DNA from: an uncultured Planctomycetia bacterium
GTDB taxonomy: Bacteria; Omnitrophota; Gorgyraeia; Duberdicusellales; 4484-171
Assembly: GCA_964536865.1 (NCBI GenBank)
Contig: CAZHYN010000001.1
Span: 161,824-225,823 of the forward strand
DNA length: 64,000 nt
Direction: 5' to 3'
The stretch's first letter is position 1, and each line of letters opens with the position of its first letter. Shown here one piece after another: positions 2,931-60,432 of the stretch. A program made the position numbers and the translations under genes. The notes under the pieces are model-generated. The model saw nothing but the letters and a program-made list of their open reading frames with translations, was not told where the DNA came from and did not search any database.

Positions 2931-3046
2931 AAAAAAGTGTCAATAGGGTATTTATTTTTTAGTTGAAAGGTTTAATATGGGAATAGGTGGTTATAGCCTT
3001 TATGAATTTACATACTTTTGTTGACAGAACCAATGTAAGCGTTTTC

Positions 3047-3077
3047 TTGACATTCCCCTTTTTATATGTTATATACT
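3047..3077 (+). promoter_or_regulatory. sigma70-like promoter upstream of cvpA (TTGACA -17- TATATA/TATACT)
   Basis: TTGACA at 3047-3052, 17-nt spacer, TATATA at 3070-3075; about 25 nt before the start at 3099. Confidence 0.3.
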
Positions 3078-3098
3078 AATTAATCCTTTGGTTGAGTA

Positions 3099-3677
3099 AT
3101 GAAAATAATAAAAAGCTTCCTTTTTATAGATTTACTGAGTATATTTCTTATACTAAGGATAATTTATATTGCCTTAAGAGAAGGGTTAATTTCTGAGGGA
3201 ATAAAAGTCATAGGAAGTTGGTGTGCACTCTTTTTTTCACTTCAGTACTACCCCTTACTTTTAGGTGGTTTTAAGAGCGAAGTCTTAAAGAGAGAATATT
3301 TAAATTTTTTCTCGTTCTTTCTCATATTTTTTGGGGTTTTGGCCCTTTTTTCTCTTCTCAGAAAGATGATAACTACTTTTGTTAAGAGAAAGAATAAAAC
3401 TCTGATAGAGAATGCTATCTCTTTTCTACTGGGAGGTGTAAGAGCAGGAATCTTACTAATTGCTTTTGTTTTTTCCTTTTCACTTCTTTCCCCTAAGAAA
3501 AATATTTTTAGAGGAAGTTTATCTTTGAGAGTATTCTATAGGTTTGTTCCTAAAATCTATCTTTACTCTTTTAGGGTATATAAGAAGTTATATCCTCAAG
3601 CAAAGTTAAATAAGGAGGTAAGAAGGAGCTATGAAGTTAAAGGAGATTTATCAAGAAGTAGTGAAGAAAGGAATTGA
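3099..3677 (+). CDS. cvpA: CvpA-family membrane protein (colicin V production protein-like)
   Basis: N-terminal architecture typical of CvpA (MKIIKSFLFIDLLSIFLIL...), 4 TM helices. Confidence 0.5.
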   Translation: MKIIKSFLFIDLLSIFLILRIIYIALREGLISEGIKVIGSWCALFFSLQYYPLLLGGFKSEVLKREYLNFFSFFLIFFGVLALFSLLRKMITTFVKRKNKTLIENAISFLLGGVRAGILLIAFVFSFSLLSPKKNIFRGSLSLRVFYRFVPKIYLYSFRVYKKLYPQAKLNKEVRRSYEVKGDLSRSSEERN

Positions 3678-4590
3678 AGCTGATCCTCGAGGCAAAAAAG
3701 CAATTGAGAACGTTCTAAAAGAAAAGAAGGAAGCTTATCAGAAATTAAATAAAAAAGAAAAAGAATTCTTTGATGCTGATTCTTTGTTTAATCCTTTCGC
3801 TGATACCAGGATCCTATGGGGAGATCCCTCTTCCGAGATAAAGTCTATAATTGTAGGAATAGATGTGGAAGGGCAGGAATTTCTCTTGGTAGATTCCTTA
3901 CGGCGGAAAGGAGTAAGTATTGATTTAATAGTGTCTCATCATCCACAAGGGCGTGCTTATGCTAATTTCTACGAAGTTATGGACTTACAGGTAGACATCT
4001 TTAAGGAGAAAGGAATTTCCTTAAGTAAAGTGGAAGCTCTTTTGGGGGAAAGAAAAGCCCAGGTGGAGAGACGGGTTTCTAGCGCTAATCATCAGAGAGC
4101 CATAGACTTTGCTCGTTTCCTTAATTTGAGTTTCTTCTGTATGCATACGCCTGCAGATAACTTAGCTTACCAGTATATAAAGAAGTTGATGGATAAAGAA
4201 AAACCTAAAAGGATAAAAGATATATTAGATCTCCTTTTAGATATCCCTGAATATCGTGAGGCAGCTAGAAATAATAATCCTCCTAAGATATTTTTAGGTA
4301 ATAAAGAATCTAAAGTTTCTAAAATCCATATAGAGTTTACAGGAGGAACAGAAGGTCCTGAAAGTATCTATGAAAACCTTTCTTCTGCAGGAGTAGATAC
4401 TATCATTGCTATGCATCAGTCTGAGGAGCATTACCGAAAGTGTAAGCAAGCTAATATTAATGTTGTTGTTGCTTCCCATATCGCTAGTGATACTTTAGGA
4501 GTAAATCTTATGCTTGATTACCTGCAAACCAAGGGGAAGTTTAGGATTTTAGAGTTCTCTGGATTTAGAAGATTTTCTCACAGGAAATGA
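3631..4590 (+). CDS. Nif3-family (YqfO/YbgI-like) dinuclear metal-centre protein
   Basis: IDLIVSHHP and FFCMHTPADN motifs correspond to the Nif3 HHP and H-T-x-D metal-binding motifs; a C-terminal GTEG...ASHIASD module. Confidence 0.6.
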   Translation: MKLKEIYQEVVKKGIEADPRGKKAIENVLKEKKEAYQKLNKKEKEFFDADSLFNPFADTRILWGDPSSEIKSIIVGIDVEGQEFLLVDSLRRKGVSIDLIVSHHPQGRAYANFYEVMDLQVDIFKEKGISLSKVEALLGERKAQVERRVSSANHQRAIDFARFLNLSFFCMHTPADNLAYQYIKKLMDKEKPKRIKDILDLLLDIPEYREAARNNNPPKIFLGNKESKVSKIHIEFTGGTEGPESIYENLSSAGVDTIIAMHQSEEHYRKCKQANINVVVASHIASDTLGVNLMLDYLQTKGKFRILEFSGFRRFSHRK

Positions 4591-6335
4591 TACCTCAGCA
4601 GTTTATAGAGGAAGTTCAGGCAAGGACAGATATTGTAGATTTAATTTCTACCTATATACCCTTAAAAAGGACAGGAAGGAATTTTAAAGCTCTTTGCCCT
4701 TTTCATAATGAAAAGACACCCTCTTTCTTTGTCAGTCCTCAAAAGCAGATTTTTCACTGCTTCGGTTGTGGAGAGGGAGGAGGGGTAATTCAGTTTCTTA
4801 TGCTTTTTGAGAAGGTAAGTTTTGTGGAAGCGGTAGAGATTTTAGCTAAAAGATTGGGATTAGAAATTCCTTATCAGAGAACAACCCTTCAAGATAGGTT
4901 AAAGACAGTCCTTTATGAATTAACAGATGAAGCTTCTAAGTTCTTTTTCGCTACACTCTTAACCACTCCTCAAGGAGAGGAGGCACGTAGATACTTCCTT
5001 AAGCGAGGGATAGATAGCGAGACAATAAGGCAGTTTCGTTTAGGTTATGCTCCGGGCAGAAATACTCTTTTAGAATTCATGCGTAAGAAGGGCTACAATT
5101 TAGAGATATTAGAAAAAGCCTCTTTGGTTATTCCTAAAAGAGAAGGGGGCTATCTGGATATGTTTCGAGAGAGGATAATTTTTCCTATCTTTGATGTTAA
5201 AGGCAGAGCAGTAGGATTTGGGGCAAGAGTTCTTCGAGAGAGCAAAGATATCCCTAAATACATAAATTCCTTAGAGAATCCTATTTATGAGAAAAGAAGC
5301 CATCTCTATGGGTTTAACTTCTCTAAAGAAGAAATTTCAAAAAGAGATTGGGTAATTGTTGTAGAAGGGTATTTTGATATGATTACTCTATATCGGGAGG
5401 GGATAAGAAATATAGTCGCCTCTCTGGGGACAGCGTTAACCTTAGAGCAAATTAATCTCCTTAAGAGGTATACTAAGAATATCGTTCTTATTTTCGACTC
5501 TGATAAGGCTGGTCAACTTGCTACCTTACGAGCTCTGGATCTCCTTTTAGAGAATAGTTTAAAGATAGGAATCGTAAAAATGCCTCAAGGGTTCGATCCC
5601 GATTCTTTCGTAAGGAAGAAAGGTAAAGAGAAATTTCAGGAACTTCTTCAAGAGAAGTTAGATTTTTTTGATTATAAAATAAACGTATTGAAAGATACTT
5701 ACGATTTGGATAGTATCGATGGAAAAAGTACGGTAGCAGAGGAGATGCTTCGGACAATAAATAGGATTACTAGAGAGGTAGAAAAGTATGAGTATATAAA
5801 GAGATTAGCTTCTCTTCTTTCGGTAAGAGAAGAAGTGCTTCTTTTGGAACTTAATCGAATGAAAGAACCCGCCTATCCGAAGAGTCCCCTCTCGGTTAAA
5901 AAAAAGATGGAGAAATCGCCTATGCCTATTACTGAGAAGTTACTGATTCAATTTATTCTAGCCAGTAAGAAGGCAGCAAAAGTGATAAAGAGGAATTTAG
6001 ATGTAGAGTGTTTTTCTCATCCTTTAGCAAGGAAAATAATTTCTTTACTTTTTGATAATTTTATAGGAAATGAAAGTTTATCTGTTAATACTCTGTTAGG
6101 TATGATAGAAGACAAAGAGGTAACAAGTTTTATTTCGCAACTTCTTTTGGAAGATAAGGTATCTTTAACTAAAAAGCTCCTTAAAGATTGCATATTGAAA
6201 CTCCGTCAGAGGAGAATTAAAGTTTTAAAAGAGGAGCTAAGAAAGAAAATAAAGGAAGCAGAGTCTAAGAGAGATGGGGAGAAAGTAAAAGAGTTAATTA
6301 GTCGGTATAAAGAGTTAAAAAGCGAGGTAAGATAA
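4587..6335 (+). CDS. dnaG: DNA primase DnaG
   Basis: Zinc-ribbon [11 protein letters not shown]...FHCFGCG, Toprim motif ([15 protein letters not shown]), and a C-terminal helical domain. Confidence 0.92.
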
Positions 6336-48887: not shown

Positions 48888-50576
48888 ATGGAGTCTTTAA
48901 GAGAAAGAATACTTAAGGATGTTGTAGAAAGAAAAGGGGTAGATAAGAGTATTCTAGATAGGATTAATAAAGAATCAAAGAATATCTATCAACTGAAAGA
49001 GAATCTCATTAAGAATAACATAGTCAGCGAAGAAGAGATTTTACTTATTTTCTCTAAGGAGCTTAAGATTCCCTTTTTTGATTTGGGGAAATATAAGGTT
49101 TCTTCAGAAAATAAGGAGATAATACCCAAAGAGTTAGCCTTTAAATATAAAGTATTTCCCATATCTAAGATAGGAGAGGTATTAACCTTAGCTACAGCTA
49201 ATCCTCTAGATGTTGTAGCCATTGATGATATAAAGATGGTTTGCTCCTTAAACAGAGTGGAGCTAGTATTGGCGAAGGAGGAGGAGATTATAAGATTCCT
49301 AGATGAGCTTTATTCTCAAGAAAAGATTTTTCCTCTTTTAGAGGAGGCTCCGCAAGATGCAGAGGTTCAAGAGGTCTCTTATAAGGGAGAGGAGAGTTTA
49401 GAGAAAGTTATTAAGGAAAGTAATCTCCCCCCTATTATAAGAGTGGTGGATTTGATTATCTACGAAGGATTAAAGAGGAGGGCTTCCGATATCCATATAG
49501 AGCCTACAGAAAAAGATTTATCTATAAGGTATAGGATAGATGGAGTTCTTCATCATGGTTTGAGTCTTCCTAAGATTAATCAAAATGCTATTTTGGCGAG
49601 ACTGAAGATTATGTCTTCTTTAAATATTACTGAGTTCAGGGTTCCTCAGGATGGAAGATTTAAAATAAAATTTGAAAATAGGGAGATAGATTTTAGAGTT
49701 TCGTCTCTTCCCACTGATTTTGGAGAGAAGATAGTGTTAAGGGTTTTAGATAAAGAGAGCCTCTCCTTAGGGCTCAAAAACTTAGGTTTTTCTCCCAGAC
49801 CTTTAAAGTTATTTGAAGAAGCCTTAAAAGCCCCCTTTGGCATAATTCTTGTTACTGGCCCTACGGGCAGTGGTAAGTCTACCACCCTTTACTCAGTAAT
49901 CACCCAACTAAATACTCCGGACAAAAGTATTATCACTATAGAGGATCCTGTAGAGTATCAAATAGAGGGCATTACTCAAATTCAAGTAAATCCTGAAATC
50001 GGCCTTACCTTTGCTTCCTGTTTAAGGAGTGTATTGCGTCAGTCTCCTGATATAATAATGGTAGGAGAAATTCGAGACTCAGAAACTGCTGATATTGCTA
50101 TTAAAGCTTCTCTTACAGGAGAATTAATATTTTCTACCTTGCATACCAATAACTCTGTGGGAGCAATTACTCGGTTAGTGGATATGGGAGTGGAGCCATT
50201 TTTGGTGGCTTCTTCTTTAATCGCTTCTACTGCTCAGAGGCTAACAAGAAGAGTCTGCCCCAAGTGTAAGGAGGAGTATAAACCCGATAAGGAGCTATTA
50301 AAGAGAATTAACTTTCCTCCTTTTTCAGGGAAGTTATATAAGGGTAAGGGCTGTGAGTTCTGTCATTATACTGGCTATAGGGGGAGGACAGCACTTTTAG
50401 AAGTTTTTTCCTTAGATGATAGTTTAAGAGAGATGGTGGCAAAGAGAGCTAGTGAAGAGGAGTTAACTAATTATGCCCGCAAGCATCGCGATTTTAGCTC
50501 ACTAAAAGAAGATGGGTTTATAAAATGTATTGAGGGGGTATCGAGTTTAGAGGAAGTTTTAAGGGTAGCAGGTTAG
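48888..50576 (+). CDS. Second PilB/GspE-family assembly ATPase, a paralog
   Basis: Walker A GPTGSGKSTT, CPKC...CEFC zinc motif; about 50% identical to the upstream ATPase in the core. Confidence 0.9.
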   Translation: MESLRERILKDVVERKGVDKSILDRINKESKNIYQLKENLIKNNIVSEEEILLIFSKELKIPFFDLGKYKVSSENKEIIPKELAFKYKVFPISKIGEVLTLATANPLDVVAIDDIKMVCSLNRVELVLAKEEEIIRFLDELYSQEKIFPLLEEAPQDAEVQEVSYKGEESLEKVIKESNLPPIIRVVDLIIYEGLKRRASDIHIEPTEKDLSIRYRIDGVLHHGLSLPKINQNAILARLKIMSSLNITEFRVPQDGRFKIKFENREIDFRVSSLPTDFGEKIVLRVLDKESLSLGLKNLGFSPRPLKLFEEALKAPFGIILVTGPTGSGKSTTLYSVITQLNTPDKSIITIEDPVEYQIEGITQIQVNPEIGLTFASCLRSVLRQSPDIIMVGEIRDSETADIAIKASLTGELIFSTLHTNNSVGAITRLVDMGVEPFLVASSLIASTAQRLTRRVCPKCKEEYKPDKELLKRINFPPFSGKLYKGKGCEFCHYTGYRGRTALLEVFSLDDSLREMVAKRASEEELTNYARKHRDFSSLKEDGFIKCIEGVSSLEEVLRVAG

Positions 50577-50583
50577 GAGGAGT

Positions 50584-51789
50584 ATGGTTTTTTTCTCTTA
50601 TACAGTAAGGACAAAGGAGGGTAAAACTGTAAGGGGGAGTTTAGAAGCGGAATCTAAAGAGAAGGCTTTAGAATACCTTCACTCTCAGGGTAATATCATT
50701 TTATCCCTTAAAGAAGAAAAGAAAAAAGTTACCCCGAAAAAAAGAGGAGGGAGAGTTAAAGTTGATGAATTGGTGGTCTTTTCTCGACAGCTTACTACTT
50801 TGATAGAGAGCGGTATTCCTGTGGTAGGAGCTTTAGATATTCTTTGGCAACAAACTACTAATCCTTATTTTAAGGCAGTCTTGGAGGATATTCTGAAGGA
50901 GTTAAGGGAGGGAGCGTCCTTAGCTTCCAGTTTAGCAAAACATCCTAAGGTGTTTCCTGAAATTTATGTAAGCATGGTAGAGGCTGCAGAGACTTCAGGG
51001 AACTTACCTCAGATACTGAATAGATTATCTCTGTATTTAGAGAAGGCGAATGCCTTAAGAAAAAAGATTATTTCCAGTTTAACCTACCCTGCTATTGTAG
51101 TAATAATGGCTATAGGGATAAGTAGTTTCCTTATCTTTAAAATTATCCCTACCTTTAAGGGAATATTTGATACTTTAGGAGGAGATTTACCTCTTCCTAC
51201 TCAGCTCCTGATTGGTTTTGCTGAGTTAGTGAGAAAAAATGTTCTCTACTTGATAGGAGTTTTTATTATTGCACTGGTTGCTTTCTACAGATACATCTCT
51301 ACTCCTAAGGGAAAGAAAATGTATCATAAATTTCTTTTAAATCTTCCTATCTTAGGAGATATAGTAAGAAAGATTAGTATTGCTAAATTTTCTCGCACCT
51401 TTGCTACTCTGATGAAAAGTGGAGTAAATATTACTACTACTCTGAATATCGTAGGCAAAACCAGTGGAAATAAAATTATTGAGGAGGCAGTAGCTAATTC
51501 TAAAAAAGCGATTCAAGAAGGCATTCCTATTTCTAAACCTCTGGAAGAAAGCGGAGTTTTTCCTCCTATGGTGATACGGATGATTGCTGTAGGAGAAAAG
51601 AGTGGGAAGTTGGAGGAGATGCTTTCTAAGATTGCTCAGTTCTATGAGGAGCAGACTGATGCGGTAATTTCCGGGCTTACTAGTTTAATCGAACCTATTG
51701 TTATAGCGTTCTTGGGGATAGTTATCGGAGGTATTGTAGTTGCTCTATTTTTACCCATTATAAAGATAACTCAACTTTTAGGAAGATGA
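50584..51789 (+). CDS. pilC: Type IV pilus / T2SS inner-membrane platform protein (PilC/GspF)
   Basis: Duplicated T2SSF domains, 3 TM segments, typical length. Confidence 0.9.
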   Translation: MVFFSYTVRTKEGKTVRGSLEAESKEKALEYLHSQGNIILSLKEEKKKVTPKKRGGRVKVDELVVFSRQLTTLIESGIPVVGALDILWQQTTNPYFKAVLEDILKELREGASLASSLAKHPKVFPEIYVSMVEAAETSGNLPQILNRLSLYLEKANALRKKIISSLTYPAIVVIMAIGISSFLIFKIIPTFKGIFDTLGGDLPLPTQLLIGFAELVRKNVLYLIGVFIIALVAFYRYISTPKGKKMYHKFLLNLPILGDIVRKISIAKFSRTFATLMKSGVNITTTLNIVGKTSGNKIIEEAVANSKKAIQEGIPISKPLEESGVFPPMVIRMIAVGEKSGKLEEMLSKIAQFYEEQTDAVISGLTSLIEPIVIAFLGIVIGGIVVALFLPIIKITQLLGR

Positions 51790-51798
51790 CTTTAAAAG

Positions 51799-52239
51799 AT
51801 GAAGGATAATTTTACTCTGGTAGAAGTTATGATTGTGGTAGGGATTTTGGTACTTTTAACTGTTCTAGTAGTTCCTAATATTTTAAGAGCCCGCATTACT
51901 GCTAACGAAGTAGGAGCAATTACTTCCTTAAAAACTGTCTTTTCCTCTGCTCAAATTTATAAAAATATCAACTCTGTCTACCCTTCCTCTTTAGGAGATT
52001 TAGGAGATGCTAATCCCCCTTATATTGAGGAAGAGTTAAGCTGTAATGACCAACCTTGTCCCAAACAAGGGTACAATTTCACTCTTACTGGCTCGGAGTA
52101 CTCTTTCTATGCGGTAGCCTCTCCTCAGATTTTTGGCTTCACCGGGATAAGAAGTTTCTACATAGACGAAAATGGCCTAGTTAAGTACTGTGATACCGCT
52201 GATTGTGATCCTTCCCAGGGGATAATCCTTCAAGAGTAG
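51799..52239 (+). CDS. Type IV (pseudo)pilin with a class III signal peptide
   Basis: MKDNFTLVEVMIVVGILVLL: G|FTLVE cleavage and N-methylation motif with Glu5; C-terminal Cys pair. Confidence 0.8.
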   Translation: MKDNFTLVEVMIVVGILVLLTVLVVPNILRARITANEVGAITSLKTVFSSAQIYKNINSVYPSSLGDLGDANPPYIEEELSCNDQPCPKQGYNFTLTGSEYSFYAVASPQIFGFTGIRSFYIDENGLVKYCDTADCDPSQGIILQE

Positions 52240-52256
52240 AGGAGAATTTCTAGCCA

Positions 52257-52285
52257 TTGAAAAATACCTCCAGGTATGCTATATT
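52257..52285 (+). promoter_or_regulatory. sigma70-like promoter (TTGAAA -17- TATATT) immediately after the first pilin gene, driving the structured RNA
   Basis: TTGAAA at 52257-52262, 17-nt spacer, TATATT at 52280-52285. Confidence 0.4.
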
Positions 52286-52291
52286 TTAGGT

Positions 52292-52552
52292 AGACAATCT
52301 TGGGAACGAGAAAGGCAAACTCAGGGTAACCTGGGGACCCGCGAAAGCGGCTATTTACCTAACTGGGTAAATAGGCAAAGCCGTGCGTCCCGCTCTTTCT
52401 AAAACCCAGATTAACAGGGGTTTGAAGTTAAAGTGCATAAGGGATGCAGAGGCAGGTAAACTGCAGGATTTAACTAGAAATATGAAAAGGGCGGGATAGG
52501 CAGGTTGCCGAATTCCTAAAAATACCCAGGTAGGTTATTACCTGGGTTTTTT
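52292..52552 (+). ncRNA. Candidate structured RNA with GEMM-I (c-di-GMP-I riboswitch)-like core motifs, ending in an intrinsic terminator
   Basis: GC-rich island in AT-rich DNA; AGGCAAAC–[TCAGG-GTAA-CCTGG GNRA hairpin]–GGGAC...GCGAAAGCGG (GAAA hairpin)...9-bp hairpin CTATTTACC/GGTAAATAG...GGCAAAGCC; this resembles the GGCAAAC–P2(GNRA)–GGGAC–GCAAAGC core of GEMM-I as I recall the consensus; bounded by the promoter at 52257 and the terminator at 52524-52552. Confidence 0.4.
52524..52552 (+). terminator. Rho-independent terminator (8–9-bp stem CCCAGGTA/TACCTGGG followed by T6)
   Basis: Stem 52525-52532 / 52539-52546, loop GGTTAT, then TTTTTT. Confidence 0.6.
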
Positions 52553-52573
52553 AATAGAGAGGGGGGGTAAATA

Positions 52574-52601
52574 TTGACATTTCTTCAGATTGTGGTATAG
52601 T
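52574..52601 (+). promoter_or_regulatory. sigma70-like promoter (TTGACA -16- TATAGT) upstream of the second pilin
   Basis: TTGACA at 52574-52579 and TATAGT at 52596-52601; RBS AAGGGGGTGAGG before the ATG at 52637. Confidence 0.4.
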
Positions 52602-52636
52602 TAAAAATGGTTTATCAAGAAGAAAGGGGGTGAGGA

Positions 52637-53032
52637 ATGAGGAAAGGTTTTACTTTGGTAGAAATTATGATTGTTGTAGCAATCATCGCCCTTTTGGCAG
52701 CTATTGCTATTCCTAACCTGCTAAGAGCTCGTATCACCGCTAATGAAAGTGCTGCTCAGGCAAACTTAAGAACTATCTCTACTGCTTTAGAAAATTATGC
52801 AGCTGCTAACAACGGAAGTTATGCCACTGACGAGAGTCAACTTACCGATGCTACTCCTCCTTACTTGAATCAATCCTTCTGTGGCAATACTATTCAAGGG
52901 TATACTTACTCTTGTACCCTTGCTGCTACTGGATACACAGTAACCGCTACTCCTGCATCCTGTGGGACGAGTGGAACAAAGACTTATACTATAACAACTG
53001 GTGGTGTTTTATCTTCAGCGGATTGCTCTTAA
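52637..53032 (+). CDS. pilA: Type IV major pilin (PilA-like), a paralog of the 51799 gene
   Basis: MRKGFTLVEIMIVVAIIALLAAIAIPNLLRARITANE class III signal; C-terminal disulfide-loop cysteines; followed by a strong terminator. Confidence 0.85.
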   Translation: MRKGFTLVEIMIVVAIIALLAAIAIPNLLRARITANESAAQANLRTISTALENYAAANNGSYATDESQLTDATPPYLNQSFCGNTIQGYTYSCTLAATGYTVTATPASCGTSGTKTYTITTGGVLSSADCS

Positions 53033-53056
53033 CGAATCAAGGTAGGATATCTTTAG

Positions 53057-53092
53057 CCCCCTCTCTTCGAAAAGAGAGGGGGTATTTTATTT
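53057..53092 (+). terminator. Rho-independent terminator (11-bp GC-rich stem CCCCCTCTCTT/AAGAGAGGGGG followed by a T-run)
   Basis: Stem 53057-53067 / 53072-53082, 4-nt loop, then TATTTTATTT. Confidence 0.7.
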
Positions 53093-53102
53093 AAGAGGAA
53101 AG

Positions 53103-53453
53103 ATGTTAGTTAAAGCTTATACTCTAGGAGAAGTATTGGTGGCAGGAGCAATTATTTTAATTTGTGTAGCTGGTCTTCTTTTTCTCTTTGTTACTTGTAG
53201 ATTTTTAAATGATTTCAACAGTAACCTTGTTACTGCTGCCTCTGATGCGCAAACAGTGCTAGAGCAGATAAAAGATCTTAGCTATTCTCAGATAGGAAGT
53301 TATACTCCTCCTCAGTTTAATCACTTACCTGAGGAAAATGTTACTCTTACAACCTCCTCACAAAATAGATTGACGGAGGTGACGGTAAATGTCAACTGGA
53401 CAGAGAGAGGTCAGAAGAGAACTTTCACACTCAAGACATATTTTTCTCCCTAA
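53103..53453 (+). CDS. Minor pilin / pseudopilin-like protein with an atypical prepilin motif (Ala at -1)
   Basis: MLVKA|YTLGEVLVAGAIILICVAGLL: Glu at +5 and a hydrophobic helix as in class III signals, but Ala replaces the usual Gly at -1. Confidence 0.5.
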   Translation: MLVKAYTLGEVLVAGAIILICVAGLLFLFVTCRFLNDFNSNLVTAASDAQTVLEQIKDLSYSQIGSYTPPQFNHLPEENVTLTTSSQNRLTEVTVNVNWTERGQKRTFTLKTYFSP

Positions 53454-53967
53454 ACTAAAGGGGGTTACTCTAGTGGAAGTTCTCATCGTTACGGCAGTTA
53501 TGTCAACAATTTTTGCTAGTTTATTTTATGTGCTTACACAGGGGTACCTCTCTAATGAAATTGGGTTAGCAAAGCTAAAACTTCAAGAGGAAGCAAGGAG
53601 GGCGATAGAGGTTATAGGAAAGGATGTTCGTCAGACTACGGTAAGTGAAATCAAAAGTAATAATCCTTCCAGCTCTCACCTTAAGTTTCGTATTTATCAA
53701 GATTACTCTGGAGGTAATCCTCAATGGAGTAGTAACTATATCGAGTATACTTATGATGCCAATTCTTATAAACTTCAACGTACCGATTATAACTCAAATA
53801 TTACCACCTACTTTTATAACATAGCTAGCCCCCCTTTTGATGTTGAAGAGTTAATTAACAATAACGAAAATAAAATAAGTATCGATTTAAATATGCAAGA
53901 GACAGTGAAAGGTTCTTTACCGATAAATTTTTCTTTAACAGGAGAGGTGACCATACGCAATGAGTAA
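53389..53967 (+). CDS. Minor pilin-like protein; start uncertain (either a long 25-aa leader from the ATG at 53389 or a non-canonical start near 53440)
   Basis: ...PKLKG|VTLVEVLIVTAVMSTIFASL prepilin motif with Gly -1 and Glu +5; no ATG/GTG/TTG lies between the upstream stop and the motif; the ORF from the ATG at 53389 overlaps the previous gene by 65 nt. Confidence 0.45.
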   Translation: MSTGQREVRRELSHSRHIFLPKLKGVTLVEVLIVTAVMSTIFASLFYVLTQGYLSNEIGLAKLKLQEEARRAIEVIGKDVRQTTVSEIKSNNPSSSHLKFRIYQDYSGGNPQWSSNYIEYTYDANSYKLQRTDYNSNITTYFYNIASPPFDVEELINNNENKISIDLNMQETVKGSLPINFSLTGEVTIRNE

Positions 53968-54862
53968 AAAGGGAGTAGCTCTTCTTTTAGCCCTTTTGAT
54001 TCTAGCAGTTCTAGGTATTCTAGGAAGTTCACTTTTTATAAGTAGTTTAACAGAGAGCAACCTAACGAAGAGAGATATAAGAGGGAAAAGAGCCTTTTGG
54101 GCAGCGGAGTCAGGAATTTCTAAAGGGATAGAAAAGTTAAAAGAATGTGTACAAAGTGGTGATTGCCAGGTAAGCGGGACTATAGATTATGAAAATGAGA
54201 GTTATTCCTATTCTGCTACTATTTCCGTATTAGATAGCCTAAATTATCGTATAGATTCCTCAGGTTCTTTAGGTCAGATAACTAAGAATATTTCTGCAGT
54301 TGTAAGGTTGAGAGATATCGATGCTAATAATTTTCCTTATGCTATAGAAACTGAGGGTCTTTTGGAGATCGGAGGAAATGCTCAGATAACTCCTTCTGAT
54401 AGCACCAAAGAGCAATCATCTTTAGATTTTAATAGTCTGTTTACTTTTACTAAGGAAGAATTAAAGTCTTACGCTGATTACACCTATACGGATCCTCCCA
54501 ATAATATCACTCCTTGTGAGGGCATCACTTGGGTAGATGTATCTCCTGAGGATGAGTTTAGAATAACTTCAGATAGTTGGGAAGGTAGTGGTATTCTTGT
54601 GATTGAAGGCAATGTTAAAATAACTGGAGGGAGATTCCGAGGGATAATATATATTATTGGGGGGCAGTTAGAGGTACCTTTAGAGGTAGCAGCAGGTAAC
54701 CCCATCATAGAGGGAGCTATCCTAGTGGAATGCATACCCACTAGTACTACTCGCATAAGAGGAGATTTTACTTTGAATTATGATCTCGATGCTATCAACG
54801 AAGCTTTGGATAATTTAAGATTTATTGCTCCTCGAATAGTAGCGTGGTGGGAAGGTAGTTAA
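53960..54862 (+). CDS. PilX-like minor pilin / pilus assembly protein (PilX_N-type N-terminus)
   Basis: MSKKGVALLLALLILAVLGILGSSLF resembles the PilX N-terminal domain (RGxALxxALxxLxxLxxLG); large variable C-terminal domain. Confidence 0.55.
   Translation: MSKKGVALLLALLILAVLGILGSSLFISSLTESNLTKRDIRGKRAFWAAESGISKGIEKLKECVQSGDCQVSGTIDYENESYSYSATISVLDSLNYRIDSSGSLGQITKNISAVVRLRDIDANNFPYAIETEGLLEIGGNAQITPSDSTKEQSSLDFNSLFTFTKEELKSYADYTYTDPPNNITPCEGITWVDVSPEDEFRITSDSWEGSGILVIEGNVKITGGRFRGIIYIIGGQLEVPLEVAAGNPIIEGAILVECIPTSTTRIRGDFTLNYDLDAINEALDNLRFIAPRIVAWWEGS
54088..54348. repeat. 261-bp segment 100% identical to 55010-55270 (copy 1, inside the first PilX-like gene)
   Basis: Read base by base; identity begins at AAGAGCC... 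and ends at ...GCTATAGA; the flanks diverge. Confidence 0.9.
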
Positions 54863-54884
54863 AAGAGTTTGGGGTGAATAAAGG

Positions 54885-55769
54885 ATGAGAAAAGCCATCG
54901 CCTTAATTTTTAGCCTTTTAGTAATGGCAGTTCTATTTATAATTGGGCAGTCCTTTTTCACTCAGACCTTAAATGGAAGTAACTTAGTGAAAAGATATGT
55001 AACCTCCTTAAGAGCCTTTTGGGCAGCGGAGTCAGGAATTTCTAAAGGGATAGAAAAGTTAAAAGAATGTGTACAAAGTGGTGATTGCCAGGTAAGCGGG
55101 ACTATAGATTATGAAAATGAGAGTTATTCCTATTCTGCTACTATTTCCGTATTAGATAGCCTAAATTATCGTATAGATTCCTCAGGTTCTTTAGGTCAGA
55201 TAACTAAGAATATTTCTGCAGTTGTAAGGTTGAGAGATATCGATGCTAATAATTTTCCTTATGCTATAGAGAGTCAGGGAGCGATTGAGGTAAAGGGAAG
55301 TGCTCAGATAACTCCTTCTGATAGTAAAAAGGAGAATAGCGATTTAGATTTTAAAAGTTTATTTGGTTTTACTAAGGATGAACTAAAGAGTTATGCTACC
55401 TACTATTACCAGGATCCTCCCAATAATGTGGAGCCGGTTGAGGATATAACTTGGGTGGAGCTCTCTGAAGGAAAAGAACTTAGGATTACTTCTAACAATT
55501 GGGAAGGTAGTGGCATTCTGATAATTAATGGGGATGCTAAAATAACAGGTGGGGAGTTTGAAGGAATAATTTATGTGATTGGAGAGTTGGAAGTGCCTGC
55601 AGGCAATCCTACGGTAGAGGGGACCATTTTGGTAGAAGGAGACCCTTCAGAGACTACAAGTTTGAGAGGTAATTTTGAGTTAGACTACGATACAGAGGCA
55701 ATAGATGAAGCCTTGAATAACTTAAGATATGTGGCTCCTCAAACTGTAGCTTGGTGGCAAACTTATTAG
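54885..55769 (+). CDS. PilX-like protein, tandem paralog
   Basis: MRKAIALIFSLLVMAVLFIIGQSF; the C-terminal half is about 60% identical to the upstream paralog, and an internal 87-aa block is 100% identical. Confidence 0.55.
   Translation: MRKAIALIFSLLVMAVLFIIGQSFFTQTLNGSNLVKRYVTSLRAFWAAESGISKGIEKLKECVQSGDCQVSGTIDYENESYSYSATISVLDSLNYRIDSSGSLGQITKNISAVVRLRDIDANNFPYAIESQGAIEVKGSAQITPSDSKKENSDLDFKSLFGFTKDELKSYATYYYQDPPNNVEPVEDITWVELSEGKELRITSNNWEGSGILIINGDAKITGGEFEGIIYVIGELEVPAGNPTVEGTILVEGDPSETTSLRGNFELDYDTEAIDEALNNLRYVAPQTVAWWQTY
55010..55270. repeat. 261-bp segment 100% identical to 54088-54348 (copy 2, inside the second PilX-like gene)
   Basis: As above. Confidence 0.9.
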
Positions 55770-55811: not shown

Positions 55812-55845
55812 TAGTTTAAAGGTGAAATTAGTTTAAAGGTGAAAT
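55812..55845. repeat. 17-bp perfect tandem duplication (TAGTTTAAAGGTGAAAT x2) containing the RBS and GTG start of pilM
   Basis: Copies at 55812-55828 and 55829-55845; the first copy's GTG runs into an immediate TAA. Confidence 0.85.
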
Positions 55846-56849
55846 TAGCTCAGTTACTAAAAAAGAAAATTAGTGAATGGAACGAAAAGACCAAAAGGCT
55901 ATTTGCCTATGAAGAGAAAGATTTTGTTTCTCTTGACTTAGGAGCTAGGTACTTAAAGGGAGCTTTAGTTAAGGATGGTAAGATTGGGGAGTTATTTATA
56001 GAAAAAAAAGGAGAGTCAGCTTCAGCGATTGACTTTTTGAAGAGCAAAGGAGTCCTTTCTAAAGAAGTTAAATTTGCCATAAAAGGGCCTGAAACCCTTA
56101 TAAGATATATTCCCTTCCCTAAAGTAGAGAAAGGTAAGTTAAAAGAGGTTTTTGGCTACGAACTATCAAAGTACATCCCTTTTTCTCCTGAGGATGTATA
56201 CTTTGATATTTCTATCCTCGATGAGAATTATTCTAAAGATGAGTTTTTGATACTTCTTGCTGTAGCAAAGAAAGAGTTTATTGATTCTCTCCTTTCTCCT
56301 TTTCGAGAAAGAAAAGTGGAGGTTAAAGAGATTTCTCTGAGTAATTTAGCTCTCTTGAATCTTTTTTTTCACTGTAAAGAAAAAAAAGCTTCTAACACTG
56401 CTATAATAGATTTAGGGTTTTCTTCCACCCTTCTTAATCTAGTAAAGGGAGAAATGCCTTATTTAAGTAGAGAGATTAAAGTCGGTTGTTTTCACCTTAT
56501 AGAGAAGATATCTTTAGTTAAGAATTTATCTCATGATAAGGCGGAGGAGTGGTTAGTTACCTCCTCCCAAGTTGACGAACTTCTTAAGATAGGAGAAGAG
56601 CCACTATGGGAACTTTCTCGAGAGGTAAAAAGTTCTCTCGATTACTTTGAGATGAATGTAGGAGAGAATGTAGAGGAGTTTTATCTTACGGGAGGAGCCT
56701 CTTCTGTAGAAAGTGTTAGAGAAGTGATTAGTAAGTCTTTAGGAGTTAAGTTAATTCTTTGGGATGTGGCAAAGACTTTAGATATAAAAGTTAAGAGCTT
56801 CTCTTTTCCTCTTCAAATGTTTTCTCCAGTGATAGGTTTAAGCCTATGA
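55839..56849 (+). CDS. pilM: Type IV pilus assembly protein PilM-like (actin/FtsA-like fold)
   Basis: Position and size in the pilMNOPQ order; N-terminal LDLGARYLKGALV resembles a PilM/FtsA phosphate-1 motif; GTG start. Confidence 0.6.
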   Translation: MKLAQLLKKKISEWNEKTKRLFAYEEKDFVSLDLGARYLKGALVKDGKIGELFIEKKGESASAIDFLKSKGVLSKEVKFAIKGPETLIRYIPFPKVEKGKLKEVFGYELSKYIPFSPEDVYFDISILDENYSKDEFLILLAVAKKEFIDSLLSPFRERKVEVKEISLSNLALLNLFFHCKEKKASNTAIIDLGFSSTLLNLVKGEMPYLSREIKVGCFHLIEKISLVKNLSHDKAEEWLVTSSQVDELLKIGEEPLWELSREVKSSLDYFEMNVGENVEEFYLTGGASSVESVREVISKSLGVKLILWDVAKTLDIKVKSFSFPLQMFSPVIGLSL

Positions 56850-58275: not shown

Positions 58276-59628
58276 ATGAAAAAAGAAGTCATTTTAATTT
58301 TTACGATAATGTTTAGTATATTATTTTTAAACCTTTTTGTTTTTGCTCAGGAAGGGAGGATTTCTTCCTTAAAGTTTAGAGATGCTGATATTCGGGTGGT
58401 TCTTCAGGCGATTACCCAGAAAGCAGTAAAGAATGGGGTTAAAGTAAACATTATTATCTCCCCTCAAGTAAAAGGCCCGGTTACAGTTGACCTAGAGAAT
58501 GTAGATTGGCAAACTGCTTTAGATGCAGTATTGAAAACCTATGACTATGGATACGAGTGGGTAGGCAAGAACATAATTCTAGTAGATACTTTGGATAATT
58601 TAGCTAAAAGAAGAAAGAAAGTTCAGGAGGCTCAGGTTGCCGAACCCTTAGCTACCAGAGTTTTTACTCTTAATTTTGCTAAGGTTGAGGAGATAAAGGA
58701 TACTCTGGAGAAATTATTAACTCCTAAAGGTAAGTTAACTTATGATAAAAGAACAAATACTTTGGTGGTAACTGATACCCAGTCTAGCTTTTACGCCTTA
58801 GAAGAGACCATTAAGGCTTTAGATGAAATAACTCCTCAGGTTTTAATTGAGGCAAAGATTTTAGAAACCGATTTAGATGTTACTAACAAGTTAGGGATAA
58901 ACTGGAACATTCAAGGTACTATCTCAGGAAGTAAACGGGTTCACACCTGGCCCTTTACTAAGCATTCAGAGAATAAATATTTAAGGGGAGATGATATTCC
59001 TAGCGTTTCCAGTGTACACTCAACCCTTTCTGATGTATTTGCTTTCGGTACTTTAGATACTTCTTCATTGTCGGCAGTATTAGAGATTATTTTTAATGAT
59101 ACCAGTACTAAAATACTGTCTACACCCAAAATTACTACCATGGATAACCATACCGCTACTATTGATGTTATAACCGAAGACCCTGTACCTAATTATACTT
59201 ATAACTCTGAAAGAGGAAGCTGGGAGATATCTGGTTACGAATGGGTAAAGTATGGGGTATCTTTAGAGGTGACCCCTCAGATAAATAAAGAAGGATTCGT
59301 TACTTTAGCGATAAAACCCAGGGTGAGTGAGAATCTTGGTGATAAAGAGTTTACTTCTTCTTCTGGAGCTGTGGCTCAGATACCTAGGCTTTACACTCAG
59401 ACCACTTCCACGAGAGTAATGATAAAAGATGGAGAGACTTTAGTAATTGGAGGATTGGTCAGAGATAAAGTAGTAGATACTGTTAACAAAATTCCCCTCT
59501 TAGGGGATATTCCTATTCTTGGGTATTTCTTTAAACACAGAAGTAAAACCACAGAGAAAAAGAATCTTTTGATCTTTATTACTCCCAGGATAGTTACTCC
59601 TCAGAAAGAGACAGCCAGTGCTAAATAA
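58276..59628 (+). CDS. pilQ: Type IV pilus secretin PilQ (short form)
   Basis: Secretin_N-like domains and a C-terminal secretin domain (LVIGGLVRD...IPLLGDIPILGYFFK...NLLIFITPRIV). Confidence 0.85.
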   Translation: MKKEVILIFTIMFSILFLNLFVFAQEGRISSLKFRDADIRVVLQAITQKAVKNGVKVNIIISPQVKGPVTVDLENVDWQTALDAVLKTYDYGYEWVGKNIILVDTLDNLAKRRKKVQEAQVAEPLATRVFTLNFAKVEEIKDTLEKLLTPKGKLTYDKRTNTLVVTDTQSSFYALEETIKALDEITPQVLIEAKILETDLDVTNKLGINWNIQGTISGSKRVHTWPFTKHSENKYLRGDDIPSVSSVHSTLSDVFAFGTLDTSSLSAVLEIIFNDTSTKILSTPKITTMDNHTATIDVITEDPVPNYTYNSERGSWEISGYEWVKYGVSLEVTPQINKEGFVTLAIKPRVSENLGDKEFTSSSGAVAQIPRLYTQTTSTRVMIKDGETLVIGGLVRDKVVDTVNKIPLLGDIPILGYFFKHRSKTTEKKNLLIFITPRIVTPQKETASAK

Positions 59629-59634
59629 GATATT

Positions 59635-60432
59635 ATGTATCTTGATTTCTATGGCTTAAAGCAGGTCCCTTTCAGTATTACTTCTGATCCTCAATTTTTC
59701 TTTGAGAGTTCTTCTCATCGAGAAGCTTTAGCTACTCTCCTTTATGGAATAAGAGAGAAGAAAGGGATAATTTTAATTACAGGAGAGGTAGGAACAGGCA
59801 AAACCACTCTTTGTAAGGCTCTTCTTGATAAGTTAGATCATAATATAAAAACTTCTTTGATTTTAAATCCTTTCTTCAGCTCTGTGCAACTCATTCAGGC
59901 TATAATTGAGGATTTCGGTATACATCCGGATAAGAAAAGTAAGTTAGCTCTTATAAATAATTTAAATAGTTTTCTTATAGATATTACTCTTAAAGGAGGA
60001 GGGGCGGTTGTTATAGTTGATGAGGCTCAAAATTTAACTCCCAATCAGCTTGAGCAAATAAGACTACTTTCTAATTTAGAGACATCTAAAGAAAAACTTT
60101 TACAGATAGTTTTGGTAGGTCAACCTGAGATTATAGAAAAACTTAACCAGCCTCGGTTAAGACAGATACGTCAGAGGATTTTTGTAAAGTATAGTCTTTC
60201 TCCTTTAAGAGAGGAAGAGATAGCTGAGTACGTAAATTTTAGACTCAAAAAAGCAGGGCAGGCAGATGTTAAAATTTTACCCCAAAGTTATAAAATTATC
60301 TATCAGTTCTCAAAAGGAATCCCCCGGCTTATCAATATCCTCTGTGATAGAGCCTTGCTTTTCGGATTTGCTAAAGAAAAAAAAGTCCTAGATGAAGAGG
60401 TGTTCAGAATCTGTGTAGAGGAGCTTATATGA
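59635..60432 (+). CDS. ExeA/GspA/MshM-like AAA ATPase (secretin-assembly associated)
   Basis: Walker A GEVGTGKTTL, Walker B VVIVDEAQNL; 265 aa, no C-terminal peptidoglycan-binding domain. Confidence 0.8.
   Translation: MYLDFYGLKQVPFSITSDPQFFFESSSHREALATLLYGIREKKGIILITGEVGTGKTTLCKALLDKLDHNIKTSLILNPFFSSVQLIQAIIEDFGIHPDKKSKLALINNLNSFLIDITLKGGGAVVIVDEAQNLTPNQLEQIRLLSNLETSKEKLLQIVLVGQPEIIEKLNQPRLRQIRQRIFVKYSLSPLREEEIAEYVNFRLKKAGQADVKILPQSYKIIYQFSKGIPRLINILCDRALLFGFAKEKKVLDEEVFRICVEELI

Follow-up and report, generated by a model that had tools for sequence, protein, structure and literature searches.

In Neisseria, silent promoterless pilS cassettes donate variable segments to pilE, the one expressed major pilin gene, and thereby generate diversity. 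Our literature search on gene conversion in minor pilins returned this Neisseria pilE/pilS work alone. Concerted evolution of bacterial paralogs has its classic cases in tufA/tufB and the rRNA operons, and its survey (PMC6053082) provides the general background on the process in prokaryotes. Here we analyzed a 64,000-nucleotide stretch of Candidatus Omnitrophota DNA (the window), in which two adjacent, intact genes, A (53960-54862) and B (54885-55769), contain a repeat that is identical between them inside otherwise diverged sequences. We conclude that this is very probably a clade-specific tandem duplication whose flanking parts have diverged, while the central 261 nt, encoding the pilin head, are homogenised by recurrent and ongoing gene conversion. 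The features of the locus are the following, with A and B as given in the open reading frame (ORF) list.

53103..53967, + strand: two small upstream minor-pilin-like genes of 116 aa and 192 aa (ORFs)
53960..54862, + strand: gene A, a 300-aa tip-type minor pilin-like protein
53960..54087, + strand: diverged 5' part of A, leader and hydrophobic alpha1-N
54088..54348, + strand: cassette copy 1, in A, codons 44-130, exactly identical to copy 2
54349..54862, + strand: diverged 3' part of A, a beta-rich, solenoid-like C-terminal domain
54863..54884, + strand: A-B intergenic spacer of 22 nt, from the sequence
54885..55769, + strand: gene B, a 294-aa tandem paralog of A
54885..55009, + strand: diverged 5' part of B, leader and hydrophobic alpha1-N
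55010..55270, + strand: cassette copy 2, in B, codons 43-129, exactly identical to copy 1
55271..55769, + strand: diverged 3' part of B, a beta-rich C-terminal domain without the 5-residue insertion that A has before AGNP
55839..56849, + strand: pilM (PilM_2, E 1e-17), followed by pilN, pilO-like, T2SSB-like and secretin genes

Self-comparison of the window confirmed the original prediction that 54088-54348 and 55010-55270 are identical base for base and encode the same 87 residues (RAFWAAES...FPYAIE). The identity extends over exactly 261 nt and no further, the copies being offset by 922 nt, and the figure of 100% is that of one assembly, a contig of 359,446 nt present at NCBI and JGI, in which a short-read assembler could have smoothed 1-3 real differences. 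The 64-kb window holds no other repeat of at least 40 nt and no further copy of the cassette. Outside the block, the N-terminal 43 residues of A and B share 45% amino acid and 56% nucleotide identity (dS about 2.2), in line with the predicted difference between the leader and transmembrane parts, and the roughly 165 aligned C-terminal residues share 64% amino acid and 67% nucleotide identity (dS about 1.5), close to the 60% predicted over some 170 residues. Synonymous sites in the flanks have reached saturation (dS about 1.5-2.2). In the 5' part, the proportion of synonymous differences between A and B (pS) is 0.62-0.83 up to the very edge of the block; in the 3' part it climbs from about 0.4 beside the block to about 0.9 distally. 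The 5' edge is very sharp, and simple erosion of the block gives no explanation for it. When the variable sites were shuffled 20,000 times, the longest identical run had a mean of 21 nt and a maximum of 51 nt against the 261 nt observed (per-site expectation of such a run <1e-32). By a Sawyer-type comparison, the identical tract is thus longer than the distribution of differences predicts.

The sequence arranges A and B in one operon-like array. Each is a full-length ORF that has a start codon and a ribosome-binding-like motif. Gene A starts 8 nt before the 192-aa minor pilin gene upstream of it ends, and AAAGGA, a ribosome-binding-like motif, lies directly upstream of B, whose protein is identical to a database protein (P0003). 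The genes follow one another as 116 aa, 192 aa, A and B. An N_methyl motif was found in the 192-aa product (Pfam, E 3.5e-4), and from the gene order this protein and the 116-aa product presumably join A and B as partners in a tip complex. The pilM, pilN, pilO-like, T2SSB-like and secretin neighbours mark the locus as one for a type IV filament; besides the PilM_2 match, the Pfam families backing this context come from the orthologous locus L005.

At the protein level, the putative prepilin cleavage site falls between MSKKG and VALLL in A (Gly at -1) and between MRKA and IALIF in B (Ala at -1), and close outgroups have Ser or Ala at -1. Neither protein has Glu5, position +5 being Leu in A and Phe in B. 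The designation "PilX-like" held up weakly: A matches PilX_N (PF14341) at 20.8 bits (E 3.8e-4), under the Pfam gathering threshold of 25.5, B has no PilX_N match in Pfam, and 7 of 18 family members match at E <= 0.01. The predicted fold is closest to ComZ. An AlphaFold2 model of A (pLDDT 89.9) has a helix at residues 3-66, four strands at 70-116 and, at residues 129-298, many short strands forming an extra beta-rich domain, so that the predicted layout is type IV pilin-like, with an N-terminal hydrophobic alpha1 and then an antiparallel beta-sheet. On this model the block corresponds to helix residues 44-66 (alpha1-C) and the four-stranded sheet 70-116, i.e., the pilin head. The best Foldseek match was ComZ (PDB 6qvi; E 1.4e-4, probability 1.0, TM-score only 0.29), with GspI-type minor pseudopilins next (probability up to 0.99, E-values 0.2-0.9). 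A profile search against PDB sequences gave nothing meaningful, with no detectable sequence similarity to any solved structure, and weak Pfam matches to Bactofilin (beta-helix) appeared in 3 of the 18 family members. The missing Glu5, a size above that of the other minor pilins owing to the extra domain, and a position after I-/J-like minor pilin genes are all found in GspK/PilX/ComZ-type proteins, suggesting a tip location for A and B.

Exact matching of the A and B proteins of the window, and of P0003, led to no contig, and orthologous loci were reached via homologs; a scan of genome contigs contributed one relevant locus, L001, which is partial. The tandem pair is also present in five other metagenome assemblies from this Omnitrophota clade, giving six assemblies altogether from different samples and pipelines (JGI and ENA), with unique flanks on both sides. 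The same mosaic, which the original prediction had proposed to look for at orthologous loci, recurs in all five: the block is the same, its boundaries are the same, and A and B are 1-3 nt apart within it (98.9-99.6% identity in L003, L005, L088 and L089). These differences are G/A, C/T, C/T and C/T at positions 177, 231, 254 and 308. More distant metagenome loci (29-44% identity) were single-copy in 80 of 80 cases. The C-termini of A and B are 64% identical to each other versus 48-56% to any outgroup, and the N-terminus of B is 60% identical to the single-copy outgroup P0006 versus 45% to A.

Comparison between lineages separates the block from its surroundings. The cassette of the window lineage differs from those of the L and L088 lineages at 12-14 positions, versus 0-3 between A and B within a genome, and 9-11 of the between-lineage differences are synonymous (dS about 0.2). 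Among four-sequence site patterns, the cassette has 11 concerted and 0 orthology sites and the flanks have 1 concerted and 182 orthology sites (Fisher p = 4e-17); the 11 cassette substitutions are polarised by no outgroup and are read for neither the number nor the direction of conversions per lineage. Every fixed between-lineage difference in the block is common to both paralogs. Within the tract, then, paralogs of one genome are closer than orthologs, as in concerted evolution, and outside it the pattern is that of orthology. Between the window and L005 orthologs, dS is 0.18-0.23 in the cassette and 0.13-0.23 in the flanks and neighbouring genes (pilC is lower, at 0.04). As the cassette evolves between orthologs at the rate of its flanks and neighbours, nucleotide-level constraint does not explain the identity. 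Alleles of their own at gene positions 279 and 338 mark L088, and also L087, as a third lineage; L088 carries them in both copies, and L087, represented by a partial B copy only, carries them there as well. The flanks of L088 are a mosaic of window-like and L-like sequence, indicating that between-strain recombination also acts on the locus and blurs the lineages. At positions 390-520, 10 sites have only the L copies differing versus 2 with only the window copies differing; this is suggestive of conversion reaching 3' of the block in the window lineage and is not significant, and we make no claim from it.

The same exchange is visible within one population. Between L005 and L089, the flanks of A show no difference over 642 sites and those of B show one over 624, yet L005 has the A/G polymorphism at position 177, 49 nt from the unique flank, in gene A and L089 has it in gene B, so that the polymorphism is shared between paralogs; these are short-read assemblies. 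Over its full length, the cassette of L005-A has the same haplotype as that of L089-B, with the caveat that all assemblies are short-read metagenome assemblies, in which the phasing of mid-cassette SNPs could be wrong. The original prediction of recent gene conversion or concerted evolution of the central segment is thus supported both between lineages (11 versus 0 sites) and within a population (position 177). The 0-3 differences between A and B, the shared fixed sites and the shared polymorphism together require at least two temporally separate events, and at least one conversion took place before the lineage split and at least one after it.

Both genes are intact and under purifying selection. 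In gene A, the cassette and C-terminus have an ortholog dN/dS (NG86) of 0.04-0.16, and codons 1-43 give 0.63, on only six substitutions; in gene B it is 0.00-0.08. The proposal of a diversifying, surface-exposed C-terminus did not stand, as C-terminal dN/dS is 0.16 in A and 0.08 in B, i.e., purifying at the measurable scale. The C-termini of A and B are old, stably maintained and different domains.

The course of events is very probably the following. Within one Omnitrophota clade, the gene for a large minor pilin of the tip type, part of a type IV filament locus, was duplicated in tandem to give A and B. Their 5' parts (leader and alpha1-N) and 3' parts (the beta-rich tip domain) then diverged to synonymous saturation, each now being conserved separately, while recurrent non-reciprocal homologous recombination between the two direct copies kept the central 261 nt homogeneous, a process that is still going on in the population. 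The flanks would by now be too different to pair, which would confine conversion tracts to the block and give it the same boundaries in every lineage. A and B are likely alternative tip subunits that offer an identical docking domain to the same partner minor pilins and display different tip domains. Because the block coincides with the predicted pilin head, a constrained interaction module is plausible; homogenisation could also be selectively neutral. The repeat is in addition a substrate for fusion of A and B, which may come about by real deletion or by assembler collapse.

Such fusions bear on the reading that survives best beside recurrent conversion, in which the cassette is a recombination switch: deletion between the direct repeats, mediated by RecA and followed by re-duplication, would yield a single hybrid gene and vary the pilus tip in the population. 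The original prediction had named the repeat as a likely source of assembly collapse or chimerism, and other assemblies bore this out with three single-gene products joining the N-terminal part of A to the C-terminal part of B (L006 and L086 as DNA, P0030 as protein only) and two contigs that begin inside the cassette (L001, L087). In favour of a switch, the chimeras come from three genetic backgrounds and samples, and in each the 3' part of B comes after a cassette with the A-type alleles of the chimera's own lineage; the L006 chimera lies on an 18-kb contig, and the junction identity in L086 (a k141 MEGAHIT contig) would be only 81 nt, shorter than k, if its genome resembles L003. However, a de Bruijn assembler that skips the tandem-repeat loop gives exactly this product, and the reciprocal hybrid of the B N-terminus and A C-terminus was not found. 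We therefore regard deletion and re-duplication as possible but rather unlikely, and we doubt still more strongly that the cassette is a built-in switch whose reversible deletion and duplication alternate between two tip pilins and one hybrid with the membrane helix of A, the common head and the tip domain of B. If it were, a probably host-attached Omnitrophota population would gain heritable, recombination-driven pilus-tip variation, and the three chimeras would be real variants.

Much less likely is a single event, whether a recent conversion or a swap of the head segment, with no continuing process. The block edges are the same in all lineages, as if set by one ancestral event, but an event before the split would leave about 12-14 A/B differences per genome where 0-3 are seen, with 11 fixed differences present in both copies, and the paralogs share polymorphisms within one population. 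It is slightly less probable again that the assembler made the identical block or the whole tandem, by mis-resolving a repeat or fusing two strains. The window haplotype comes from one contig only, a 261-nt exact repeat is longer than usual k-mer sizes, and collapse-like chimeras and breaks occur at this locus in other assemblies; against this, six independent assemblies contain the tandem with unique flanks, which shows that the arrangement is real, the copies are 1-3 SNPs apart in five of the six and were thus resolved as separate sequences, and both genes are intact and under purifying selection. A nucleic-acid element in both genes (RNA structure, internal promoter or binding site) that holds the identity by selection and no recombination would fit the perfect synonymous conservation between paralogs but can be dismissed, since the same 261 nt gain synonymous changes between lineages at a normal rate, these changes are always common to both copies, which selection alone cannot produce, and Rfam gave no RNA family in or near the cassette.

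Two mechanisms of sequence diversification were considered and rejected. For pilE/pilS-type antigenic variation, both copies are full ORFs, it is the conserved segment that moved, and the 64 kb contain no other copy. For a diversity-generating retroelement, there are no mismatches in the window, and the A/B differences in relatives are G/A and C/T, not confined to template adenines.

The recurrent conversion at this locus is a known kind of process in a new example, clean but ordinary gene conversion. As segmental concerted evolution in nature it is unusually clean, the tract being one structural domain whose sharp boundaries recur unchanged in all lineages studied, and it can be followed on three time scales, through the saturation of the flanks, through substitutions that are lineage-specific and shared by both copies, and through a polymorphism that swaps between paralogs within one population. 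The pattern suggests that one docking domain has to be preserved in two alternative pilus-tip subunits, and this idea opens a testable way into the construction of tip complexes in a phylum without a cultured model. On the practical side, short-read assemblies of the locus break or collapse at the 261-nt repeat, and automated annotation of metagenome-assembled genomes will therefore include chimeric or truncated versions of A and B.

Compared with known systems, A and B resemble ComZ of Thermus thermophilus (PMC6561018) and GspK/PilX in combining a hydrophobic N-terminal helix that lacks Glu5, a small pilin fold and a large beta-rich extra domain, and in being encoded last in a run of minor pilin genes. 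They differ from ComZ in length (300 aa versus about 550), and the extra domain, clearly inserted in ComZ, here appears in the model to be appended after the sheet. As in Neisseria pilE/pilS, recombination between pilin-gene copies of a type IV pilus system is non-reciprocal; unlike there, both copies are complete genes for minor (tip-type) pilins, and a conserved segment is homogenised. As in tufA/tufB and the rRNA operons, paralogs within a genome are closer than orthologs, synonymous sites are homogenised and the process is recurrent. Unlike in those cases, homogenisation here covers just a 261-nt internal segment encoding one domain while the rest of the genes is saturated, and the genes lie next to each other as direct repeats at a distance of 922 nt, in an uncultivated phylum.

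We searched the whole 64-kb window for direct or inverted repeats of at least 40 nt and found only one: positions 54088-54348 and 55010-55270 are identical and, after extension both ways, form a maximal exact block of 261 nt at an offset of 922 nt. This cassette lies in two tandem genes, A and B, which are 22 nt apart and part of a type IV filament locus:

48888-50576, MshEN/T2SSE ATPase
50584-51789, platform protein
51799-52239 and 52637-53032, two pilin genes
53103-53453 and 53389-53967, two small minor-pilin-like genes, directly before A and B
53960-54862, + strand, gene A, ORF of 300 aa, block in frame
54885-55769, + strand, gene B, ORF of 294 aa, block in frame
55839-56849, pilM
between pilM and the secretin gene, pilN, a pilO-like gene and a T2SSB-like gene
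58276-59628, secretin
59635-60432, ExeA-like AAA protein, end of the listed locus

In a codon alignment, codons 1-43 of A share 45% amino acid identity with B (dS ~2.2, dN 0.48), codons 44-130 share 100% (dN 0, with 0 differences inside the 261-nt block; the third base of codon 130, adjoining the block, differs), and codons 131-300 share 64% (dS ~1.5, dN 0.28). The identity is far beyond chance: the longest identical run was at most 51 nt in 20,000 shuffles of the 217 variable sites, versus 261 nt observed. The original prediction of a perfectly identical 261-bp segment inside otherwise diverged genes was thus borne out. Proteins A and B correspond to database entries P0025 and P0003, both from one 359,446-nt contig (NCBI, JGI, 'gem'), and the annotations of close homologs name them as MAG proteins of Candidatus Omnitrophica or Omnitrophota.

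The description of both proteins as PilX-like held only in part. PilX_N scored 20.8 bits against A, under the Pfam threshold of 25.5, and gave no Pfam match to B; among 18 proteins of the family, 7 had a match at E ≤ 0.01. The AlphaFold2 model of A, based on an alignment of 18 sequences, was confident (mean pLDDT 89.9), with a long helix (residues 3-66) followed by four strands (70-116) and a beta-rich region (129-298) whose end is formed by a helix (276-287) and a final strand (292-298). In a Foldseek search of the PDB the top match was ComZ from Thermus thermophilus (6qvi; E 1.4e-4, probability 1.0, TM only 0.29), with GspI-type minor pseudopilins ranking below it. ComZ has a pilin fold bearing a large beta-solenoid, and a pilus-tip place has been argued for it, as for GspK (PMC6561018). 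A and B lack Glu5 and follow the genes of I- and J-sized minor pilins in the locus; together with the fold predicted for A, this suggests that they are tip-type (GspK/PilX/ComZ-class) subunits. The block encodes residues 44-130, which in the model span the C-terminal half of alpha1, the entire four-stranded sheet and the linker, and it corresponds to the predicted pilin head domain. Gly, the usual residue at -1 of a prepilin peptidase site, stands at the putative site in A and in most of the rest of the family; B (window 54885-54900) and the closest single-copy relatives, P0006, P0008 and P0009, have Ala or Ser there, which raises the question of whether B is processed.

Homolog searches and contig look-ups yielded five assemblies with the pair besides the window's:

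L003, JGI 3300028891, tandem A/B pair
L004, JGI 3300014914, tandem pair, B cut by the contig end
L005, ENA ERZ27248349, tandem A/B pair
L088, ENA ERZ23499535, tandem A/B pair
L089, JGI 3300025163, tandem A/B pair

Their flanks are ~93-96% identical to the window's, and they form at least two lineages beyond it. The same mosaic recurred at all five orthologous loci, A and B being 98.9-99.6% identical in the block (A positions 129-389, counted from the gene start) versus 56-58% in the 5' and 64-67% in the 3' flank. An artefact of assembly is contradicted by these six assemblies, in five of which SNPs distinguish the copies. The earlier warning of collapse or chimerism proved apt for other assemblies. 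Two MAG contigs start inside the cassette of B (L001, QNCE01000157.1; L087, JAGGYR010000089.1), and three samples gave single-gene chimeras joining the 5' part of A, the cassette and the 3' part of B (L006 4001-4885, on an 18-kb JGI contig, a 920-nt deletion relative to L005; L086 111-998, on an ENA k141 contig; and protein P0030), each with the A-type alleles that its own lineage has in the cassette. Downstream of the cassette L006 and L005 are 99.9% identical; upstream the figure is 99.0%, in an alignment that runs on into the diverged 3' part of A. Such chimeras are expected both from RecA-mediated deletion and from a de Bruijn loop skipped in assembly; we consider it rather doubtful that they are real deletion variants. 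L003 also has an in-frame 243-nt deletion in gene B (944-1585, 213 aa) and lacks 277 nt of the secretin gene (4075-4989) relative to L005 and L006, reflecting either real variants or poor assembly.

A metagenome scan with the family alignment added 80 more distant loci at 29-44% identity and one close chimera, all single-copy within the fetched flanks. Because the distant loci are single-copy and the C-termini of A and B share 64% identity, versus 48-56% with the outgroups, the duplication is specific to this clade. In L088, genes A and B (3001-4808) are mosaic, with the 5' part of A matching the window's (0/128 differences) and B nearest the lineage of L005 and L089 (1/125 and 7/499 differences), which indicates that lineages have exchanged DNA here by homologous recombination. 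In L088 the 131-aa pilin gene is directly preceded by a UPF0236-family transposase-like gene (PF06782; L088 1-1420), in the position occupied elsewhere by pilB, pilC and the first pilin.

Other features of the locus lie around the pilin genes. The first (51799-52239) encodes 146 aa in the window; L005 and L089 lack ~190 nt (window 51990-52179), leaving an 82-aa ORF (L005 3192-3440, L089 1115-1363), so that close relatives differ here by a pseudogene or else by a deletion variant of the pilin gene. The GC-richer 397-nt gap between the pilin genes (52240-52636) contains a possible c-di-GMP-I-GGC riboswitch aptamer (RF03167; 52305-52363, +; 26.4 bits in Rfam, where the gathering score is 59; E 4.6e-4, search space 551 nt). 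On its 3' side follow a terminator-like hairpin with a T-run (~52526-52556) and a TTGACA...TATAGT promoter-like pair (~52575-52603) upstream of the second pilin gene. The region is kept at ~92% in L005 and may hold a divergent c-di-GMP riboswitch that controls a pilin gene. A weak Rfam match to the PyrG leader between the second pilin gene and the 116-aa gene (53023-53093, +; 31.7 bits, where gathering starts at 65; E 0.15) is probably chance.

We compared sites across four sequences, scoring patterns as orthologous (A=A, B=B) or concerted (A=B per genome, differing between genomes). The flanks gave 182 orthologous and 1 concerted site, the cassette 0 and 11 (Fisher's exact p = 4e-17). A third lineage has its own cassette alleles at positions 279 and 338, present in both L088 copies and in the partial B copy of L087. 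Since the lineages differ by only ~5%, the ancestral cassettes had to be near-identical already, and since A and B have nonetheless remained identical in each genome, there was at least one conversion before the lineages split and one or more after it. Orthologous cassettes differ at ~13 sites between lineages and window A and B at 0 (Poisson 95% bound 3); the most recent conversion in the window lineage probably dates from about the final quarter of the period since the lineages parted. Between L005 and L089, flanks differ at 0/642 sites in A and 1/624 in B, yet the cassette haplotype of L005 gene A is that of L089 gene B, and an A/G polymorphism at position 177, reliably phased because unique 5' sequence begins just 49 nt away, sits in opposite genes. 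This swap between near-identical flanks argues that conversion is still under way. The substitutions and the polymorphism common to both copies contradict a single one-off event, and the predicted gene conversion and concerted evolution gained firm support as a recurrent, ongoing process.

Selection on the nucleotides themselves fared worse as an explanation. Between the window and L005, cassette orthologs have dS 0.18-0.23 (dN/dS 0.04-0.08), much as in the flanks and in most of the genes nearby (0.13-0.23; pilC lower, 0.04), which argues against constraint on cassette nucleotides as such. A nucleotide-level functional element is contradicted by this normal dS, and an Rfam search of the cassette gave no match.

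Cassette edges are the same in every lineage. On the 3' side, pS is ~0.4-0.5 adjoining the block and climbs gradually to ~0.9 distally, which fits progressive shrinking of a once longer converted region. On the 5' side similarity drops abruptly (pS 0.83 in the adjacent 20 codons). Because the N-terminus of B is nearer the single-copy outgroup P0006 (60%) than A (45%), one N-terminus may have been replaced or have evolved rapidly, a hint from 43 residues. By the established homology requirements, heteroduplex would be unable to extend into flanks this different, so conversion would be self-confined to the cassette. Just 3' of it, pS between window A and B (54349-54480 versus 55271-55402) is 0.4-0.5, versus 0.5-0.7 in L005, with a 29-nt exact stretch at 54374-54402; over positions 390-520, the L005-type copies alone differ from each other at 10 sites and the window copies alone at 2, a non-significant contrast that may be the trace of a conversion tract that was longer in the window lineage.

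A and B are both intact in all full-length assemblies. Their C-termini had been proposed to be diversifying; ortholog dN/dS of 0.16 (A) and 0.08 (B) did not support this, and they are two old, different, conserved domains. Two alternative tip subunits would then pair an identical docking head with different tip domains, a working model that fits the anatomy. The invariant head may to some extent point to the domain that these tip pilins must keep unchanged. General interest is modest, with practical relevance for MAG annotation.

A diversity-generating retroelement (DGR) is contradicted because mismatches are not adenine-specific. Variation of the pilE/pilS type is contradicted by both copies being complete genes and by the transferred part being the conserved one. 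The finding is real and the core interpretation of the original prediction right. Segmental concerted evolution through gene conversion is a known process, and the cassette adds a new, tidy example of it from an uncultivated phylum, in paralogous tip-type minor pilins.
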